From the NCBI GenBank assembly GCA_017442305.1, contig JAFRZY010000006.1, forward strand, positions 95,880 through 127,879: 32,000 nucleotides of DNA. The letters are read 5' to 3'. Of this stretch, positions 8,559 to 32,000 are shown one piece after another (the stretch's first letter is position 1; every line of letters starts with the position of its first letter). The position numbers and the translations under genes were made by a program. The notes beneath the pieces are model-generated. The model was not told the DNA's origin. It searched no databases and was given only the letters and a program-made list of their open reading frames with translations. Source of the stretch: Bacilli bacterium (GTDB taxonomy: Bacteria > Bacillota_I > Bacilli_A > RF39 > UBA660).

Positions 8559-8586
8559 AAAAAAATAGTTAACATTTGTTAACTAT
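8559..8586 (-). terminator. rho-independent terminator
   Basis: 9-bp stem atagttaac / gttaactat (8565-8573 / 8578-8586), 4-nt loop. A T-run follows on the minus strand. It overlaps the stop codon of the 8583..9899 gene. Confidence 0.65.
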
Positions 8587-9899
8587 TCTATTACAATTTC
8601 ATATGGTGAGTTTGTATCTATTCTTCCGTTACCAGTAAATGTTACATTACCTTTTAAGTTAATAACTGGGCGAACACCTAAAGATTCAAATGCAGCCGAT
8701 GTACTAATTAAAGTACCCCTTAAAAGCCAAGCATTTGCGGTTCCGTCATTACAGCTACTAGGTGAGGAAGTCCAATAACTTTCACCACTATACAAATAAT
8801 GTGTCTCCCAACCATCTATTGCTCCGGCAAACACAATCTCATCTGCAGTTAATAATCCTACCGGATTATTTAATAAACCATTACCTTTCTTTTCGCTTGT
8901 TGTATATCTATCACTTTTGTTTGTACATTTCAATTCAGGACTTTTGACTTCTACTCTCCATGTAGGACCATAGTTTATACCTACTGATACAGCTAGCGCT
9001 GGATTGTCAATTAAATCAAAGTTATAATCATAATAATCATAACTTTGTATTTCACGATCATTACAAAAGATACCATCTGCTATATATTTTTCGTAGTTTT
9101 CTTTTAGATTAGCTTCATACCAGTCATCTACTACACCTTTAATTGTACTATCTGTTTCAACACCATTTACATCATATGTATATCCTACATATTTAGTATC
9201 ATCTGCATCTCCATTATACGCGGTACTCGCAATGGATGCTGTATGTGCTACTCCATTAGCTATCGGACTTGTTCCATCATAAATCATACGAATGGTTCCG
9301 TCGCCATTAATTCTGATGATTCGCCAATACATTGAATCATTATTTGAATTAAAACCAAATTTTACATAATTATTCGTAGACCCTCCTCTAAAATAGTAAG
9401 AAGTTCCTAAATCATCTTCGGCTTTATATAAATTAGTATTTGCCTCATGAGCTGATGTATCAAAATTTGGAGTGGTTTCAACTATGGTACTATTAGCTAT
9501 AATTGCTTTAGCAAGAGCTCCTAGTTCATTAAAATACATTGTGCATTTTTCTTTTCCGTTTAATCCTTCAATTTCTGCTTTGCCATTAACATAATTTATA
9601 GTTGCGCCATTTACACAATAACTCTTTTCCAAATCAAAAACATAACCTTCTGTTGGTATCTCTTCAACATAGTTTACAGTACCATCTTCTTCAACTAGTT
9701 TAACCGCAATAGTTAAATCTCTTTTTTCAAAAAAATCTATATTACCTTTTAAAATGTTATATGAATTGGTAACTTTGTAAGCTGCATATGTTCCGTATAT
9801 GGTTACACCAATTAATAAAAACATTACTACTAGGCCCGCTATAATCAACGGTTTCTTTTTGTTTTCTTTAATTTTATAATTAAATTTTTTTAATCCCAT
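8583..9899 (-). CDS. membrane-anchored surface protein, non-diversified paralog of the DGR target; C-terminal DUF1566/DUF6273-like (CLec-like) module
   Basis: 438 aa. N-terminal TM anchor (LIIAGLVVMFLLIGVTIYGTYAAY). The central block MYWRIIRINGDGTIRMIYDGTSP...YEKYIADGIFCNDREI is about 84% identical (my hand count, about 95 aa) to ORF 31278..31928. C-terminal motif YWTSSP...GVRPVINLK. Confidence 0.7.
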   Translation of the reverse strand: MGLKKFNYKIKENKKKPLIIAGLVVMFLLIGVTIYGTYAAYKVTNSYNILKGNIDFFEKRDLTIAVKLVEEDGTVNYVEEIPTEGYVFDLEKSYCVNGATINYVNGKAEIEGLNGKEKCTMYFNELGALAKAIIANSTIVETTPNFDTSAHEANTNLYKAEDDLGTSYYFRGGSTNNYVKFGFNSNNDSMYWRIIRINGDGTIRMIYDGTSPIANGVAHTASIASTAYNGDADDTKYVGYTYDVNGVETDSTIKGVVDDWYEANLKENYEKYIADGIFCNDREIQSYDYYDYNFDLIDNPALAVSVGINYGPTWRVEVKSPELKCTNKSDRYTTSEKKGNGLLNNPVGLLTADEIVFAGAIDGWETHYLYSGESYWTSSPSSCNDGTANAWLLRGTLISTSAAFESLGVRPVINLKGNVTFTGNGRIDTNSPYEIVIE

Positions 9900-26025: not shown

Positions 26026-27057
26026 TTATATTTTTCTTAAACTACGTATAAAGTCATATACGAAATACTTTTTAGTAGTACTTTTACGTATTTTTTTAAT
26101 AACTTTATAAGGAATATAAATATCGTAGTAATTATAGCCTTCTTTTTCCATAATATATTCTAAAGACTTGATTACAGCTTCTTTAAAATTATCTACATCA
26201 AAGAAATTATAAATACGTTTTAATAACCTCTTATTAACTTTACGACATATAAATTTATAATACGCATTAGAACGTACTTTAAATACATATTTATATCCAT
26301 CTAATTTTTTGAGCACTCTTATTGTATCATAATAACCCATTTTTATGTTATCTTTTGTAGTTTCTCCATCTAAATTTAAAATACTACCTAAATATCTAGA
26401 AGGTTCAATAACAGTTAAATCAACATTTTTAGTTAGTTTTTGGGTTACTCCAAAACTATTTAATTTAACTAAATATATTTTTTGATAGCCTTTTTTTATC
26501 AGCATATTAACCGGGCTATTATCATAAATTCCACCATCAAAATAATAATTATCATCAATTATTTTTTGCTTTTTAAAGACTGGTAAATAGCAACTAGCTA
26601 AAATATATTCTTTTAGTTTTTCTTTAGGTATATCTTCTTTATACTTTATAATAGGCTTTAAATCTTTAACACGAAAAGTCACTAACCCAAAATCTTTTTT
26701 GCTGGCATATAAAGAATCAACATCTAACACCTTATCTAGAGTTAATAACATATTTTGAACATCGATACCTTTATTTTTTAAAAGTTTTAAATAACTATTT
26801 ATAGAATTCTTTATATCCTTTAAATCTGCTTCTTTTAAATCTAAAGGCTGAATATCAAATAATTTAGCTACATCTACATTTTCCCAAAAGTCTAATAGTT
26901 CATAATGTTTGTTACTTGCTAACATCGCAGCATTAAAAGAACCAATAGAGGTACCTACAAAGCCATCAATTTTTATACCACAATCATATAATGCGATAAA
27001 AGCTCCAATTTGATAAGAGCCTCTTACACCGCCACCCTCTAGAGCTAAACCTACCAT
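26026..27057 (-). CDS. patatin-like phospholipase
   Basis: GLALEGGGVRG oxyanion motif, GTSIGS nucleophile elbow (GxSxG) and DGGIYDN catalytic Asp motif. The ATG at 27057 is preferred over the GTG at 27066. Confidence 0.85.
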   Translation of the reverse strand: MVGLALEGGGVRGSYQIGAFIALYDCGIKIDGFVGTSIGSFNAAMLASNKHYELLDFWENVDVAKLFDIQPLDLKEADLKDIKNSINSYLKLLKNKGIDVQNMLLTLDKVLDVDSLYASKKDFGLVTFRVKDLKPIIKYKEDIPKEKLKEYILASCYLPVFKKQKIIDDNYYFDGGIYDNSPVNMLIKKGYQKIYLVKLNSFGVTQKLTKNVDLTVIEPSRYLGSILNLDGETTKDNIKMGYYDTIRVLKKLDGYKYVFKVRSNAYYKFICRKVNKRLLKRIYNFFDVDNFKEAVIKSLEYIMEKEGYNYYDIYIPYKVIKKIRKSTTKKYFVYDFIRSLRKI

Positions 27058-27058
27058 C

Positions 27059-28003
27059 TTATTCACCTTTTTCTTGACGTTTTAAAAACCAAATTACAGG
27101 TTTTGCTAAAAGTTTATTTAATGTTCTATTTTTAGAACTTCTTTTTAAACGCATGTAATAAGATGCTAAAGAATCGTTTCGATAATGTAAAATGTTTTCT
27201 AAATTATCACTATCTTTGTACACGTGACAATAATAGTTTTTATCTAAAAATATTTTTGATAGGATATAATTAAAGCTTAAACCATAAATTTCTAAAACAT
27301 TAATTAACAAATCCTTGTAGGTAGTAATACAAGTTTCACCACCACCAACATTGTAAGTTTTTCCTTTTAACTTTTTATCATAATCAATTGCTTTAACTAA
27401 AGCATAAGCAACATCACGATTAGTTGTTACTTCAATAGTTTCAGTATTTACCCCATTATATATAAACTTTTCTGTTTTAGGATTAGCCAAAATAATTGGT
27501 AAACGAAATATTGTATAATTTTCTAGTCTGTTTTTTATTAATTTTTCAGTATCAAATTTTGTTTTAGTATAATAATCTGTATCATTAATACTTTCTTTTG
27601 TCTTAGTAGTTATTTCTTTACTATTTTTACCATAAATTGTTGTACTTGATGGATATATCAAATAACATGCTGGATTAAAGAAAGTAATAGAACGAATTAT
27701 ATTTTCTGTACCCTTATAATCTATAATCTTACTTAAATCTTTTTTCATATCAGCAAGAGGTGGCATAACACCTGCTAAATGAATAATATAATCATGATCT
27801 TTTACTAAAGCGTCCATTAAAATTGGATCTGATACGTCTCCATAAACAATATTAATGCGACGACGATATCTTTTTAATTTTTTATATGACCCACTATTTT
27901 TTAAATCTAGGGCCGTAATCTCATATTTACCTTCGCTTAATAAATATTTGACAGTAAATAACCCAATACTTCCAGCAGCACCAGTGACTAAAACTTTTTT
28001 CAT
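27059..28003 (-). CDS. NAD-dependent epimerase/dehydratase family (SDR) protein
   Basis: 314 aa. VLVTGAAGSIG Rossmann motif and a YxxxK-type YTKTK. GAGGTG RBS. Confidence 0.8.
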   Translation of the reverse strand: MKKVLVTGAAGSIGLFTVKYLLSEGKYEITALDLKNSGSYKKLKRYRRRINIVYGDVSDPILMDALVKDHDYIIHLAGVMPPLADMKKDLSKIIDYKGTENIIRSITFFNPACYLIYPSSTTIYGKNSKEITTKTKESINDTDYYTKTKFDTEKLIKNRLENYTIFRLPIILANPKTEKFIYNGVNTETIEVTTNRDVAYALVKAIDYDKKLKGKTYNVGGGETCITTYKDLLINVLEIYGLSFNYILSKIFLDKNYYCHVYKDSDNLENILHYRNDSLASYYMRLKRSSKNRTLNKLLAKPVIWFLKRQEKGE

Positions 28004-28013
28004 ACTTCACCTC

Positions 28014-28763
28014 TTAAATAATTAAAGATAGTAATATTATTATTACACCTGTAATTATACCACAATATATCTCTTTATGCTTGCGGTTATTATAAATTTC
28101 CGGTAAGAACTCAAAGAAAGCCAGATAAATGATCATTCCTAAAGTTAAACATGAAATAATTCCTAAGAAAAGTTCATTAATATTTCCAAATAATGATACC
28201 AAAAGAGCTCCGAAAAGACTTGATAACGCTAAGGCAGTAATTAAAACTTTATTAAAACCTTTTTTATTGCGTTCTTTCGATAATGATATAGCTATTTCAA
28301 TTCCTAAAGGTATATTGTGAAGCGCTACACCAATACACATAAATAAGCCTAGTTTTATATTGTTAGTAGCTAAGCTATAAATTGCTATTCCTTCTATAAT
28401 ATTATGCAAGAAAAGCGAAATTAATGTAACTATACCAATATGGTAAACATGAGAGTTATGTTCTTCATGAATATCTTCTTCATCTTTATGTTCATGATGA
28501 TGAGCGGGTATGAAACAGTCTAAAACTTTTAGAACACCTAACCCTCCTAAAATTAATAATATAGCAATAAAATATGTACCTTTAAAAATTTCTATAACCT
28601 CTGGAATTAGATCAAATATTATTAAATTTAACATAACCACGAAAGCTAAAGAAATAGCAAAATATGATAACTTATCTTTATTTTTTATTTTACTTGTAAT
28701 AACATATCCTATAACAAAAAACAATCCTGATATTAATGCTAAAAGTAATCCTAATAATTTCAT
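28014..28763 (-). CDS. ZIP family divalent metal transporter
   Basis: His-rich loop HHHEHKDEEDIHEEHNSH. LHNIIEGIAI and ALHNIPLGIEIA motifs of the ZIP/ZupT family. The ATG at 28763 is preferred over the TTG at 28793. Confidence 0.85.
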   Translation of the reverse strand: MKLLGLLLALISGLFFVIGYVITSKIKNKDKLSYFAISLAFVVMLNLIIFDLIPEVIEIFKGTYFIAILLILGGLGVLKVLDCFIPAHHHEHKDEEDIHEEHNSHVYHIGIVTLISLFLHNIIEGIAIYSLATNNIKLGLFMCIGVALHNIPLGIEIAISLSKERNKKGFNKVLITALALSSLFGALLVSLFGNINELFLGIISCLTLGMIIYLAFFEFLPEIYNNRKHKEIYCGIITGVIIILLSLII

Positions 28764-28798
28764 ATAATCAATCCTTTTATTCCTAAAATTCAAAGTAA

Positions 28799-28827
28799 AT
28801 TATACAAAAATGGTATCTGTTTGTCAA
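28799..28827 (-). promoter_or_regulatory. consensus sigma-A promoter for the ZIP transporter gene
   Basis: Minus strand reads TTGACA (28827-28822), a 17-nt spacer, then TATAAT (28804-28799). Confidence 0.6.
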
Positions 28828-28830
28828 TTT

Positions 28831-29970
28831 TTAATTATAAGTTTCTGTAAGTGATGCTTTAAAACTTTTACTGTCCGCAATATTTAAATACCCGTTATAG
28901 TTTTTTATAATTTCTAAACAATCTTCATTATTCTTATTAGCTTTTTTTAAGCGTTTTTTTATTCTTTTTTTTGTTTTAGCGCTAAGTAAAATATGTAATC
29001 TTTTATTCTTTAACAAAAATTTATACCCTAAAAACGGTAATCCTGATTCTAAATCATATATTTGAGTTTTATTATTAATTTTTAATTTATATTTTTTTAC
29101 TTCCTCTTCAATTGCTACTATACATTTTCTTAAAAAATCTTTATTCGGATCTATTATAACTAAATCATCCATATAACGTATATAATATTTTGCATGCAAC
29201 TTTTCCTTTATAAAATGGTCTAAATCATTCAAATAATATATTGCTAAAATTTGACTAGTCATATTCCCAATGGGCAATCCCTTGCCTTTAACATAATATG
29301 GAATGTTGTTTAACTCAGAAATCTTTAGCTTTTTCTCATTATTGCTAATTTTCATATTCATAACTGCTTTTTTTTGCTTAATTATAGTATTATAAATAAT
29401 ATTATTTACATAATCTTCATCAGTACTTTTAATCATGTTTTTTATTAATGCATATATTTCTTGATCAGCTATTAAACTTTTTAACTTATCAAGTAATATT
29501 TCATGATCAATAGAATAAAAAAACTTTTCTATATCGCATTTTAAAGCATAAATTTTTTGATTTTTATTTTTTAATTTATTAACATATTTTAAAAGATAGT
29601 TTATTGCTTCTTTAGTTCCTTTATTTTTTCTAGTTGCAACATTTGTATTAATAAGCTGAGGTTCAATAAGTGGAAATAATACATATTTACTTATTAGATG
29701 ATTAACAACTTTATCTACCATACATTCGCTCATTATTATACGTTTTTTTGGCTTAGTAATAAGAAAAATATTATATTTACTATGTTTATACGTTCTAGTT
29801 TCCAACAAATTATAAACATTGGTTAAATTACTACTAAAAAATAATTCAAATTTAAATAATTTATCTTTATTCTTTGTGTGTTTTCTTATTAAGAAATACA
29901 TTAGTTTAATTTTATTAATATCAATTAAATCAGTGTAATTAATCTGATTTTTGGTTTCTGAGAATTCCAT
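28831..29970 (-). CDS. DGR reverse transcriptase
   Basis: 379 aa. Motifs are LKCDIEKFFYSIDH (motifs 1-2), LPIGNMTSQILAIYYLNDLDHF (the (I/L/V)GxxxSQ motif 4 characteristic of DGR RTs), YIRYMDDLVII (YMDD at 29164-29175) and PFLGYKF. There are no maturase or endonuclease domains. The start overlaps avd by 32 nt. Confidence 0.9.
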   Translation of the reverse strand: MEFSETKNQINYTDLIDINKIKLMYFLIRKHTKNKDKLFKFELFFSSNLTNVYNLLETRTYKHSKYNIFLITKPKKRIIMSECMVDKVVNHLISKYVLFPLIEPQLINTNVATRKNKGTKEAINYLLKYVNKLKNKNQKIYALKCDIEKFFYSIDHEILLDKLKSLIADQEIYALIKNMIKSTDEDYVNNIIYNTIIKQKKAVMNMKISNNEKKLKISELNNIPYYVKGKGLPIGNMTSQILAIYYLNDLDHFIKEKLHAKYYIRYMDDLVIIDPNKDFLRKCIVAIEEEVKKYKLKINNKTQIYDLESGLPFLGYKFLLKNKRLHILLSAKTKKRIKKRLKKANKNNEDCLEIIKNYNGYLNIADSKSFKASLTETYN

Positions 29971-30292
29971 ACGTTATTTTCCTTATTTCCACAATAAAAT
30001 TACTACTCGATGTATATTGTTTTTTACTTATAATCTTTTTTTCATAACTTACATTCATATAATAATCTAACATTGATAACTTTACTATAATATCTTTCAA
30101 ATATTTTTCCTTAATACGTTGATTAGTATTAATATTGTAAGAAAAAATTAATTCAACTAGAATATATAAATTTTTTTCAATTGAATCAATTAACACTCTT
30201 TCTTTATTCGGAAAATTTATTAGCAAACGATTTATATAAGCAGAAGTTTTTTTTGTATTATTTAAAAGATTAAAATTATAATTCATTGACAT
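29939..30292 (-). CDS. avd: DGR accessory variability determinant (Avd-like four-helix-bundle protein)
   Basis: 117 aa, helical and basic, placed immediately upstream of and overlapping the RT. FPNKERVLIDSIEKNLYILVELI resembles the FPK-E..L..Q...A motif of the Avd / 23S-rRNA-IVS protein family. Confidence 0.7.
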   Translation of the reverse strand: MSMNYNFNLLNNTKKTSAYINRLLINFPNKERVLIDSIEKNLYILVELIFSYNINTNQRIKEKYLKDIIVKLSMLDYYMNVSYEKKIISKKQYTSSSNFIVEIRKITYGILRNQKSD

Positions 30293-30701
30293 ACTCTAAA
30301 ATACGATGATAATTATGTTTATCAGCATCTATCTTATTACTAATTTGTTTAAATAAACTTGCAAGATCTTCTGCTTTTTTCATAGCCTTTAAGGCTTTTT
30401 TAATAACACTAATATAATTATTATTTTTATTAAATGTTGTTAAAAAATAACTATCTTTCTCTATTATAAGATAATCAATGTTTAAGGATTTTAATTTTAA
30501 TTTAATTTTTTCTGCAATTGAAATAGGAAACCCCACTCTATTGTCTATTATTTTATAGCCAAACAAATAATTCATCAAAGTAGCATCTTCTAAAAAAGTA
30601 TAGAAAAAATTACCTGAATGAATTAAAACTAGGGTTTCCTTATAATTATTTTTATATGATAAATATGTATTTGCTAATTTCACAGCAAAGTCTCCTTTCA
30701 T
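30276..30701 (-). CDS. MutS domain-I-like small protein (MSL-type DGR accessory ORF)
   Basis: 141 aa. KLANTYLSYKNNYKETLVLIHSGNFFYTFLEDATLMNYLFGYKI...RVGFPISIAEKIKLKLKSLNIDYLIIEKD aligns by eye to the MutS N-terminal mismatch-binding domain (MMQQYL..K..YPD.ILFFRMGDFYELF.DDA...L.I.LT...IPMAGVP......Y...L...G..VAICEQ). The true start may be GTG 30683, 8 nt after AAGGAG, because no RBS precedes the ATG at 30701. Confidence 0.6.
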   Translation of the reverse strand: MKGDFAVKLANTYLSYKNNYKETLVLIHSGNFFYTFLEDATLMNYLFGYKIIDNRVGFPISIAEKIKLKLKSLNIDYLIIEKDSYFLTTFNKNNNYISVIKKALKAMKKAEDLASLFKQISNKIDADKHNYHRILEYVNEL

Positions 30702-30717
30702 TTAAAATATAGCAATA

Positions 30718-30744
30718 GTCACATAACTAAAAAAGTTATGTGAC
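30718..30744 (-). ncRNA. perfect 10-bp hairpin in the TR-to-accessory-gene spacer (candidate structural element of the DGR RNA)
   Basis: gtcacataac (30718-30727), loop taaaaaa, gttatgtgac (30735-30744). It lies 17 nt upstream of the MSL ATG. No T-run follows on the minus strand, so it does not look like a terminator. Confidence 0.4.
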
Positions 30745-30902
30745 GTCTATATTTATATATTTAGGTAACTAATACTGCTCATTACCAGGGAATAATCTTG
30801 TTTCCAATCTAAATAGATTACTATATAAATAGTTACTTCCTCTCATTATAAGCCTTAACTTATAACCCTCAGAATTAGTAATTTACTAACATTAGTAGGA
30901 AT

Positions 30903-31018
30903 CTGGGCGCGCACCAGGGTTGTCATTGTTGACGTTGTTGTTGTTGACATTGCCATCGTTATTGACATACCACGCATTCGCATTGTCGTTGTCATCGTTG
31001 AAGTTATACGGAGCGGAA
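30903..31018 (-). repeat. DGR template repeat (TR)
   Basis: 116 nt homologous to 31177-31293. The coding-strand frame reads SAPYNFNDDNDNANAWYVNNDGNVNNNNVNNDNPGARP, with 15 Asn codons (10 AAC + 5 AAT). It is noncoding, since a stop follows 4 codons after the homology. It ends in the GC-rich CCCTGGTGCGCGCCCAG. Confidence 0.9.
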
Positions 31019-31057
31019 AAAAGCACGCTTTTATATAGACTATCCCCAAAATTCATT

Positions 31058-31081
31058 CCCAAAACGAAGAGTCGTTTTGGG
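31058..31081 (-). terminator. hairpin between target gene stop and TR (possible terminator of the target gene)
   Basis: 9-bp stem cccaaaacg / cgttttggg with a 6-nt loop. On the minus strand it is followed by AAUGAAUUUU, a weak U-tract. Confidence 0.4.
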
Positions 31082-31099
31082 AAATTATTTCTTATCTTT

Positions 31100-31345
31100 T
31101 TATTTTACTACAATGGTATATTCTGAACCTATCTGTCCATTTCCTTCAAACTGAACATCAGCTTTCAGATTGATAACTGGGCGCGCACCAGGGAAGTCAT
31201 AGTTGACGCTGTAGTTGCTGACATCGCCATCGTTACCGACAGACCACGCACTCGCATCGCCGTCGCCATCGTAGAAGTTAATGGGGAGCGGAAGTCCAAT
31301 ACATTTCATTGCTATACAGATAATATGTACTGTTGCCTGCCACAT
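31100..31345 (-). CDS. C-terminal, VR-containing fragment of the DGR target (variable) protein, in a different frame from the upstream part
   Basis: The frame encodes ...INFYDGDGDASAWSVGNDGDVSNYSVNYDFPGARPVINLKADVQFEGNGQIGSEYTIVVK*. This is homologous to the C-terminus of the paralog 8583..9899 (GVRPVINLKGNVTFTGNGRIDTNSPYEIVIE*). The annotated Met start is probably not real. Confidence 0.7.
   Translation of the reverse strand: MWQATVHIICIAMKCIGLPLPINFYDGDGDASAWSVGNDGDVSNYSVNYDFPGARPVINLKADVQFEGNGQIGSEYTIVVK
31177..31293 (-). repeat. DGR variable repeat (VR) at the 3-prime end of the target gene
   Basis: 117 nt aligned to TR with an offset of +274. In the core (31194-31273) there are 16 mismatches, all at positions where the TR coding strand has A. 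The shared GC-rich 17-mer at the 3-prime end (31177-31193) is a candidate IMH core. Confidence 0.9.
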
Positions 31346-32000
31346 TATTTCCTCCTGCTAAATATGCTTCATCTGCTGTTAATAAACCAACCGGATTTGA
31401 TAATAACCCATTTCCTAATGATTCACTTGTTGTATATCTATCACTTTTATTTGCGCATGTTAATTCTGGTGCTTTATTATCTCCTAATCTGCCCATTGGG
31501 CCATAATATTCATTTGTATATACTGCAGCATTTGGATCTGTTGTTACTGACCAATCTTCATTTAAATATTCATACTTATATATTTCTCTATCGTTGCAGA
31601 AAATAGAGTCTGCTATATATTTTTCATAATTCTCTTTTAAGTGTTCTTCATACCAATCATCTACTACACTTTTAATTGTACTATCTGTTTCAACACCATT
31701 TACATCATAAGTATATCCTACATATTTTGCTTCGTTATAATCTGTGTTATATGCTGTATTTGCTATTGTTGCTGTATGAGAAACTCCATTTTCTACAGGT
31801 GATGTCCCATCATAAATCATACGAATTGTTCCATCACCATTAATTCTAACAATTCGCCAATACATTGGTGTTCCTGACGCCACTTCAACTTCTTTTGTTG
31901 TCCAATTATTATAATCATATACTGTCAACGTTGTATCTTTCGCATATGTTCCAAATTTGACATAGTTGTTGGTTGGTGCTCCTCTAAAGTAATAACTAAT
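31278..32000 (-). CDS. N-terminal/central part of the DGR target protein (5-prime end lies beyond the window; terminated by TAA inside the VR 5-prime edge)
   Basis: The frame is open to position 32000 (..SYYFRGAPTNNYVKFGTYAKD.. upstream of the ORF-track Met). It is about 84% identical to paralog 8583..9899 across MYWRI..CNDREI. It ends ...EMYWTSAPH*, where the paralog continues YWTSSPSS... Confidence 0.75.
   Translation of the reverse strand: MSYYFRGAPTNNYVKFGTYAKDTTLTVYDYNNWTTKEVEVASGTPMYWRIVRINGDGTIRMIYDGTSPVENGVSHTATIANTAYNTDYNEAKYVGYTYDVNGVETDSTIKSVVDDWYEEHLKENYEKYIADSIFCNDREIYKYEYLNEDWSVTTDPNAAVYTNEYYGPMGRLGDNKAPELTCANKSDRYTTSESLGNGLLSNPVGLLTADEAYLAGGNNVAGNSTYYLYSNEMYWTSAPH

Follow-up and report, generated by a model that had tools for sequence, protein, structure and literature searches.

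Adenine-only differences between two repeats point to a chromosomal diversity-generating retroelement with a currently disrupted target gene in an uncultured gut Bacilli bacterium

The window analysed here is a stretch of 32,000 nucleotides (nt) from a metagenome-assembled genome (MAG) of an uncultured gut Bacilli bacterium (contig JAFRZY010000006.1, positions 95,880 to 127,879), and an interval near its right edge very probably holds the template repeat (TR) and variable region (VR) that belong to a diversity-generating retroelement (DGR) on the chromosome, one of the type that encodes a MutS-like protein (Msl) together with an accessory variability determinant (Avd). Read in the coding direction, along the minus strand, the order is the target gene with the VR, a terminator-like hairpin, the TR, a spacer of about 200 nt, msl, avd and a reverse transcriptase (RT) gene, with the last three forming one overlapping operon (Table 1).

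Table 1. Coordinates of the retroelement and its target gene in the window, listed in coding direction
Feature	Position	Strand	Description
Target (variable-protein) gene, main frame	31278..32000	minus	Leaves the window at its right edge; stop codon TAA 31278-31280 ('...NEMYWTSAPH*')
Frameshift site, coding-sense 5' edge of VR	31281..31288	minus	VR CCATTAAC against TR GTATAAC: one extra base and two non-adenine differences
VR	31177..31293	minus	Core 31177-31280 colinear with TR; +1 frame with respect to the upstream open reading frame (ORF), giving NFYDGDGDASAWSVGNDGDVSNYSVNYDFPGARP
Rest of target coding sequence, +1 frame	31100..31291	minus	VR plus 'VINLKADVQFEGNGQIGSEYTIVVK'; stop codon 31100-31102
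Terminator-like hairpin	31056..31083	minus	12-bp stem, 4-nt loop, then a T-run; after the target stop codon and before TR
TR	30903..31018	minus	38 adenines in 116 nt; 15 AAC/AAT codons; intergenic
Shared GC-rich 3' end	30903..30919, second copy 31177-31193	minus	17 nt identical in TR and VR
Structured spacer RNA	30703..30902	minus	Directly downstream of TR; starts AUUCCUACUA, contains GAUUGGAAAC, ends in a terminal hairpin
msl, MutS-like accessory gene	30276..30701	minus	MutS domain I only; PF01624 24.9 bits (cut-off 20.6)
avd	29939..30292	minus	PF22296 bAvd 40.7 bits (cut-off 40)
DGR RT	28831..29970	minus	379 amino acids; RVT_1 E 3.8e-21; phrog_1423 E 8e-80

An [I/L]GxxxSQ motif is the hallmark of DGR RTs, and their catalytic motif is YxDD. 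In the RT encoded here these read GLPIGNMTSQ (IGNMTSQ) and YIRYMDD (YMDD), and both are near-invariant across 36 relatives, with only a few conservative substitutions. The protein matches NCBI MBQ6687255.1, encoded in a 'Bacilli bacterium' MAG, with 100% identity, and its best profile match by a wide margin is to the phage RT family phrog_1423 (270 bits). As the closest RT on a viral contig is only 36% identical and the genes flanking the element are housekeeping genes (a ZIP transporter, an epimerase, a patatin and YebC on one side; an asparagine synthase, a sulfatase and a GGDEF protein on the other), the element is chromosomal and not phage-borne. Avd, with an isoelectric point (pI) of 9.7, also matches phrog_3206, 'Avd protein of DGR' (E 2.8e-12), and NF033474 DivGenRetAVD (E 1.4e-10, below the cut-off of that model). 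The msl product has 135-141 amino acids. The mechanically called msl ORF begins at ATG 30701; the true start is probably GTG 30683, giving 135 amino acids, as suggested by the ribosome-binding site AAAGGAG, by homologues and by gene calls (135 amino acids in contig L001). In four relatives (L008, L010, L012 and L014) msl likewise adjoins avd.

A repeat search of positions 27000-32000 yielded a single long direct repeat, with copies at 30903-31006 and 31177-31280 that are spaced by 274 nt and 85% identical. The A-rich copy was assigned as the TR because it is intergenic and adjoins the RT, and the substituted copy as the VR because it lies inside the 3' part of a gene; a BLAST search of the window with the TR matched only the TR itself and this single VR. 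Compared position by position, the two copies align gap-free at offset 274 and differ at 16 positions (TR 30920, 30921, 30927, 30935, 30939, 30944, 30951, 30962, 30963, 30968, 30977, 30984, 30986, 30990, 30992 and 30999). At all 16 the TR has T on the plus strand, that is, A on the coding (minus) strand, and the VR has A, C or G on the plus strand; no coding-strand C, G or T position of TR 30903-31006 differs in the VR. The probability of all 16 mismatches falling on the 37 T among 104 positions is 4.9e-9, and within the 80-nt core 30920-30999 (34 T) it is 8.2e-8. On the coding strand the substitutions comprise ten A>G, five A>T and one A>C.

An earlier reading of the same DNA from the sequence alone (the sequence-only reading) had listed these 16 mismatches from a hand alignment and placed every one at a template adenine; the computed comparison reproduces the list exactly, base by base, and finds no mismatch at a non-adenine TR position in 30920-30999. 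Its estimate of about 36 coding-strand adenines in that core has to be lowered to 34 (37 in 30903-31006), and the constant offset of 274 that it applied over 30903-31018 holds up to TR 31006 and then fails between TR 31007-31018 and VR 31281-31293, where a 1-nt gap and two non-adenine differences occur. The BLAST alignment of TR 30903-31018 with VR 31177-31293 runs to 117 columns with 18 mismatches and 1 gap.

The placement of adenines in the TR is that of a classical DGR template, with a distribution over codon positions 1, 2 and 3 of 15 : 21 : 1 in the 104-nt core. The tally of 15 asparagine codons given by the earlier reading agrees with our count (10 AAC and 5 AAT), and 11 of the 15 are altered in the VR. 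Its translations of TR and VR are likewise correct, with 14 residues changed through 14 altered codons, all nonsynonymous, but the frame in which it translated the VR is not that of the upstream target ORF, which stops at TAA 31278-31280. Homology between TR and VR ends abruptly at the GC-rich block 30903-30919, with no extended likeness beyond it of the kind found between an initiation of mutagenic homing element and its TR counterpart (IMH/IMH*). This block sits at the position expected for an IMH-type initiation element, and such a function is predicted for it; CTGGGCGCGCACCAGGG, from the GC-rich end, occurs in the window only at TR and VR (0 expected), and equivalent GC-rich ends are present at the related loci L008, L012 and L010. 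TR and VR together (30903-31293) form an island of about 48% GC within a genome of about 27% GC.

Related RTs that are 59-75% identical to this one sit in the same msl-avd-RT cassette, and two of these cassettes occupy the syntenic chromosomal site. At three related loci the differences between TR and VR again fall on TR adenines (19/19 in L012, 19/19 in L010 and 17/19 in L008). As the adenine-only pattern is accompanied by an adjoining RT, Avd and MutS-like protein and recurs at these three loci, the proposal of the sequence-only reading that mutagenic retrohoming took place here in the past is supported. This clean signature is a record of past retrohoming and not proof of present function.

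The mechanism of DGRs is established for these elements in general, and we apply it to this locus by inference. The TR and the structured spacer downstream of it would be transcribed, the RT-Avd complex would bind the TR-spacer RNA, and the resulting cDNA would be faithful at C, G and U and random opposite template adenines. This cDNA would then replace the homologous VR, beginning at the common GC-rich 3' end, with the result that up to about 21 codons could be rewritten in the C-terminal DUF6273 domain of the target, which is predicted to be secreted. For the small MutS-domain-I protein the presumed role is to shield the heavily mismatched cDNA/VR intermediate and so help it to escape mismatch repair. 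A full-length MutS is encoded on a hybrid contig (L015, described below), within the part that appears to derive from the same organism.

The spacer RNA is conserved at eight related DGR loci, and RNAalifold applied to the eight sequences gave 35 pairs, 19 of them with compensatory changes. In this structure 97.5% of cells are paired, a value attained by 0/500 shuffled alignments (80.6% paired); sliding the 3' partners lowers it to 30-48%. A covariance model built on the spacer matches the window at 30703-30909 with 182 bits; it had no match in any of 80 viral DGR loci, nor among more distant metagenomic DGR loci, and no Rfam family matched the spacer at gathering or permissive thresholds. On these comparisons the element is specific to a narrow RT clade. 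By analogy, it is the expected counterpart of the "Sp" RNA from Bordetella phage BPP-1, which wraps bRT-Avd and primes cDNA synthesis, and similar elements are reported to lie downstream of the TR in 207/278 Avd-containing DGRs. Inspection by eye for a BPP-1-style TR:spacer priming duplex and for an upstream/downstream 'stop' duplex turned up only poorly conserved complementarities of 4-8 bp. On the other side of the TR, the terminator-like hairpin is found at the same position in L008, L012 and L010, and a conserved motif, TTTTGGGGATAGTCTAT, follows the hairpin just upstream of the TR in the window, L008 and L012. At another related locus, L017, two copies of the TR-end/spacer element (8610-8813 and 9023-9101) lie about 3.5 kb downstream of the RT of that locus, in a different cassette arrangement.

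Judged by its gene content, a small MutS domain I protein and avd in the cassette and no HRDC, the locus belongs to Architecture D, the combination of MSL and avd found in 16/372 DGRs, including that of Legionella pneumophila (Wu et al. 2018, NAR 46:11, PMC5758913). It shares with that group the small MutS-domain-I protein encoded with avd and RT, the adenine-specific TR/VR differences, a chromosomal location and a frameshifting indel, and differs in its host (an uncultured Bacilli MAG of about 27% GC), in a basic Msl (pI 9.3) where a neutral average has been reported, and in its order VR-TR-spacer-msl-avd-RT, with a spacer RNA sequence specific to a narrow RT clade. Msl-encoding DGRs are also described in Bacteroides, where deletion of the host mutS raises retrohoming 5-10 fold (bioRxiv 10.1101/2024.11.15.621889). 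Compared with the prototype BPP-1, where the gene order is mtd-avd-TR-brt, the order here is different and Msl is an addition. The two have in common an A-rich TR with asparagine (AAY) codons, a VR placed toward the 3' end of the target gene (in BPP-1, that of a ligand-binding protein), the pair of Avd and RT, the GC-rich 3' end common to TR and VR, and a structured RNA downstream of the TR. Unlike BPP-1, the element has a target with a DUF6273-type fold rather than that of Mtd, and lacks both a GRNA-loop hairpin 4-34 bp after the VR and extended IMH/IMH* similarity.

The target is a member of a very large family of proteins predicted to be secreted, and has an N-terminal signal or anchor. More than 2000 homologues were found, with full lengths of about 620-650 amino acids, and these run through the hypervariable segment to a C-terminus of the form G(V/A)RPVINLKADV...PY.IV. 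A non-variable paralogue is encoded in the window itself (8583-9899, minus strand, 438 amino acids), with about 77% nucleotide identity to the target across 510 nt. Its C-terminus is laid out alike (YWTSSP...GVRPVINLK), it shows no similarity to the TR, and it is one of at least 10 paralogues in the same MAG. By sequence and structural models, the variable stretch lies in a C-terminal DUF6273 domain, which is C-type-lectin-like. One family member, P0116, passes the Pfam DUF6273 threshold (25.0, cut-off 23.5), and the in-window paralogue falls below it (13.5). AlphaFold models were confident: the predicted local distance difference test (pLDDT) score was 93 for the family member P0004, and for the in-window paralogue's C-terminal domain, in which the residues equivalent to the VR form beta-hairpins, it was 96.7. 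Searched with Foldseek against the viral models of BFVD, the C-terminal domain matched phage DUF6273 proteins (E 3e-5, prob 1.0, TMt 0.60). The whole protein had a single match in the PDB, the IgA peptidase of T. ramosa, a protein with DUF6273 as its N-terminal domain. The C-terminal domain had nothing significant in a Foldseek search of the PDB (LOX-1, prob 0.08), and a profile search of PDB sequences gave no match either; a direct match to solved structures of the Mtd or TvpA type had been expected and was absent. The C-type-lectin relationship is thus taken from the literature by analogy and not from a direct structural match.

DUF6273 is a published scaffold of DGR targets (PMC10743442; PMC11792537). 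As in the tentaclins (PMC10743442) and the targets of Faecalibacterium prophages (PMC11792537), the variable segment falls within the DUF6273 domain; in the Faecalibacterium targets it lies toward the C-terminal end of the domain, and the tentaclin VR forms a beta-hairpin on a C-type-lectin-like domain, to which the beta-hairpins of our model correspond. Unlike those gut-phage targets, the protein here is not a phage tail protein but a cellular protein of about 630 amino acids with an N-terminal signal or anchor and many chromosomal paralogues. A TasA/camelysin-like N-terminus was considered for the target and rejected, its sole support being a weak Pfam match (PF12389, E 0.019) that no structural comparison backed. 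This match lies in the N-terminal 'IGVTYAYW' segment (L001 6544-6650; P0002, P0115), and one family member carries a type IV pilin N-methylation motif (PF07963) at its N-terminus instead.

The VR lies where a VR is typically found, in the 3' part of the target ORF, but in this strain it is not in frame with it. One extra base in the VR causes the target ORF to end before the repeat is translated (the product in longer contigs is P0001, 572 amino acids). At its 5' edge the VR exceeds the TR in length by 1 nt, and this indel and the only two non-adenine differences all fall within the outer 5' 12 nt, in a stretch flanked in both TR and VR by the common TTCCGCTCC and TTC. The remaining 60 codons, in the +1 frame, are intact and family-like and match the conserved C-terminus G(V/A)RPVINLK... 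of the family. As everything downstream is still intact, the frameshift is probably recent, and as the VR is in frame at the orthologous loci L008 and L012, it represents a lesion of this strain rather than a property of the element. The identical extra base and the identical VR allele are present in four assemblies with different sample accessions (the window, L001, L002 and L177). The 90% cluster of P0001 contains no in-frame allele of this gene, its sole other member being the product of the hybrid contig L015 (P0242), which has a different C-terminal half. The indel is flanked by the sole non-adenine differences, and most simply read, the 8-nt stretch would lie on the 5' limit of the segment converted by retrohoming or immediately beyond it. 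A paralogue that adjoins gyrB/gyrA and has no DGR nearby (P0032, L178 5500-5900) is also frameshifted in the region equivalent to the VR, near a G7 homopolymer, and ordinary decay is therefore a sufficient explanation of the lesion.

The locus is in our view a genuine but ordinary DGR whose target is currently disrupted, and several observations weigh against this reading in part. A promoter scan for a TR transcript found no sigma-70-like promoter between the hairpin and the TR. There is no GC-rich GRNA-loop hairpin 4-34 bp from the VR, unlike in phage DGRs (PMC3240598); the only strong hairpin lies 94 nt downstream of the VR, has a non-GRNA AGAG/CUCU loop and is terminator-like. Aligned with the host MutS, Msl keeps the Phe of the GDFYE (Phe-X-Glu) mismatch-binding motif, and the Glu is replaced. 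In addition, all four assemblies, which are consensus assemblies only, show one VR allele and so give no sign of ongoing diversification, and with the target out of frame any present diversification would be without consequence for the protein. A reading without any DGR, in which a duplicated gene fragment diverged through ordinary mutation or gene conversion next to an RT belonging to another system, such as a defence RT (DRT), a group II intron or a retron, could appeal to RT matches to group II intron and DRT models. These are weak and far below the family cut-offs, phrog_1423 is the best match with Avd adjacent, all 16 mismatches fall at one base (P ~5e-9), and the pattern recurs independently at three related loci, so that this reading is effectively refuted already and we give it almost no credence.

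Two other readings accept the DGR and differ over the extra base. In one of them, which we consider unlikely, both the element and its target are fully functional, and the frameshift is either an artefact of assembly or consensus calling in a hypervariable region or is overcome when ribosomes slip by +1 on CCC-C, with a full-length variable protein of about 631 amino acids as the product. The intact in-frame sequence downstream, with its match to the family C-terminus, fits such a reading, as does the location of the shift at CCCC, a run on which re-pairing of tRNA-Pro in the +1 frame would be possible, and Logan contig L003 begins exactly at the 3' boundary of the VR (its position 1 is window 31177), which hints at read heterogeneity. 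An artefact is opposed by the presence of the extra base in four assemblies from different sample accessions and by the lack of any in-frame allele of the gene on record. Programmed +1 frameshifting was likewise judged unlikely, as the zero-frame codon after CCC is the common CAT, neither a stop nor a rare codon, and the in-frame orthologues need no recoding. The contigs of L008, L010, L012 and L014 also stop, at their 5' ends, at or close to the VR or TR; breaks at such places are as expected for assembly across variable repeats and are suggestive of heterogeneity only, not proof of it. The other reading, which we regard as quite improbable, holds that retrohoming itself made the frameshift, either because the 5' cDNA junction was imprecise or because the RT introduced an indel, and that later conversion by the whole TR could reverse it. 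If this were true, the DGR would toggle the expression of an adhesin besides diversifying it. The clustering of the indel and the only two non-adenine differences within 8 nt, where the converted segment has its 5' border, speaks for it, as does the position of this cluster inside the TR/VR homology, which resumes for 9 nt upstream, and frameshifting TR/VR indels are reported across the DGR tree (Wu et al., PMC5758913). Ordinary mutation explains the lesion equally well, as the frameshifted L178 paralogue illustrates, the non-adenine differences suggest that the 8-nt stretch was simply not overwritten by cDNA, and no alternative alleles were observed in the assemblies.

Taken as a past-active DGR with a disrupted target, the locus holds nothing unexpected to a specialist on DGRs. 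With it, the Msl-containing type, which has been little studied, gains a well-documented example that is cellular and not of phage origin. The host lineage is an uncultured one of gut Bacilli, probably from the ruminant gut to judge by the 'XIEF21' sample labels, and a single protein out of the very large predicted secreted DUF6273 family is diversified by the element. With its compact cassette, a spacer RNA supported by covariation and a small Msl, the locus would be a reasonable choice for the study of Msl function, for instance of a possible shielding of cDNA/VR heteroduplexes from MutS.

Scans of genome contigs with RT peptides and with the TR pattern carrying N at adenines gave no further VR alleles or named relatives, and a scan of metagenome contigs with the same TR pattern gave nothing. 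Several paralogues nevertheless carry segments that resemble the VR. Contig L015 (1-7848) has the upstream context and the N-terminal half of the target followed by the C-terminal half of the paralogue P0004 / IJN03_02250, with no DGR downstream, and represents either a chimera made in assembly or a genuine recombinant. A search for contigs encoding P0004 located none, so that its DNA was available through L015 only. In its P0004-type VR-like segment (L015 7704-7819) the 5' 19 nt and the 3' GC-rich end are identical to the TR, and there are 25 differences from the TR, 17 at adenines (P 4.8e-5) and 8 elsewhere. The paralogue P0002 (L005 7710-7819, on a contig from one of the same samples) contains a more degraded, GC-rich VR-like segment that has a 6-nt gap and differs at several non-adenine positions; it may be a fossil VR. 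The P0004-type and P0002 segments may be former targets or targets in trans, and a single TR may serve a number of dispersed paralogues, of which the P0004-type gene would be one.

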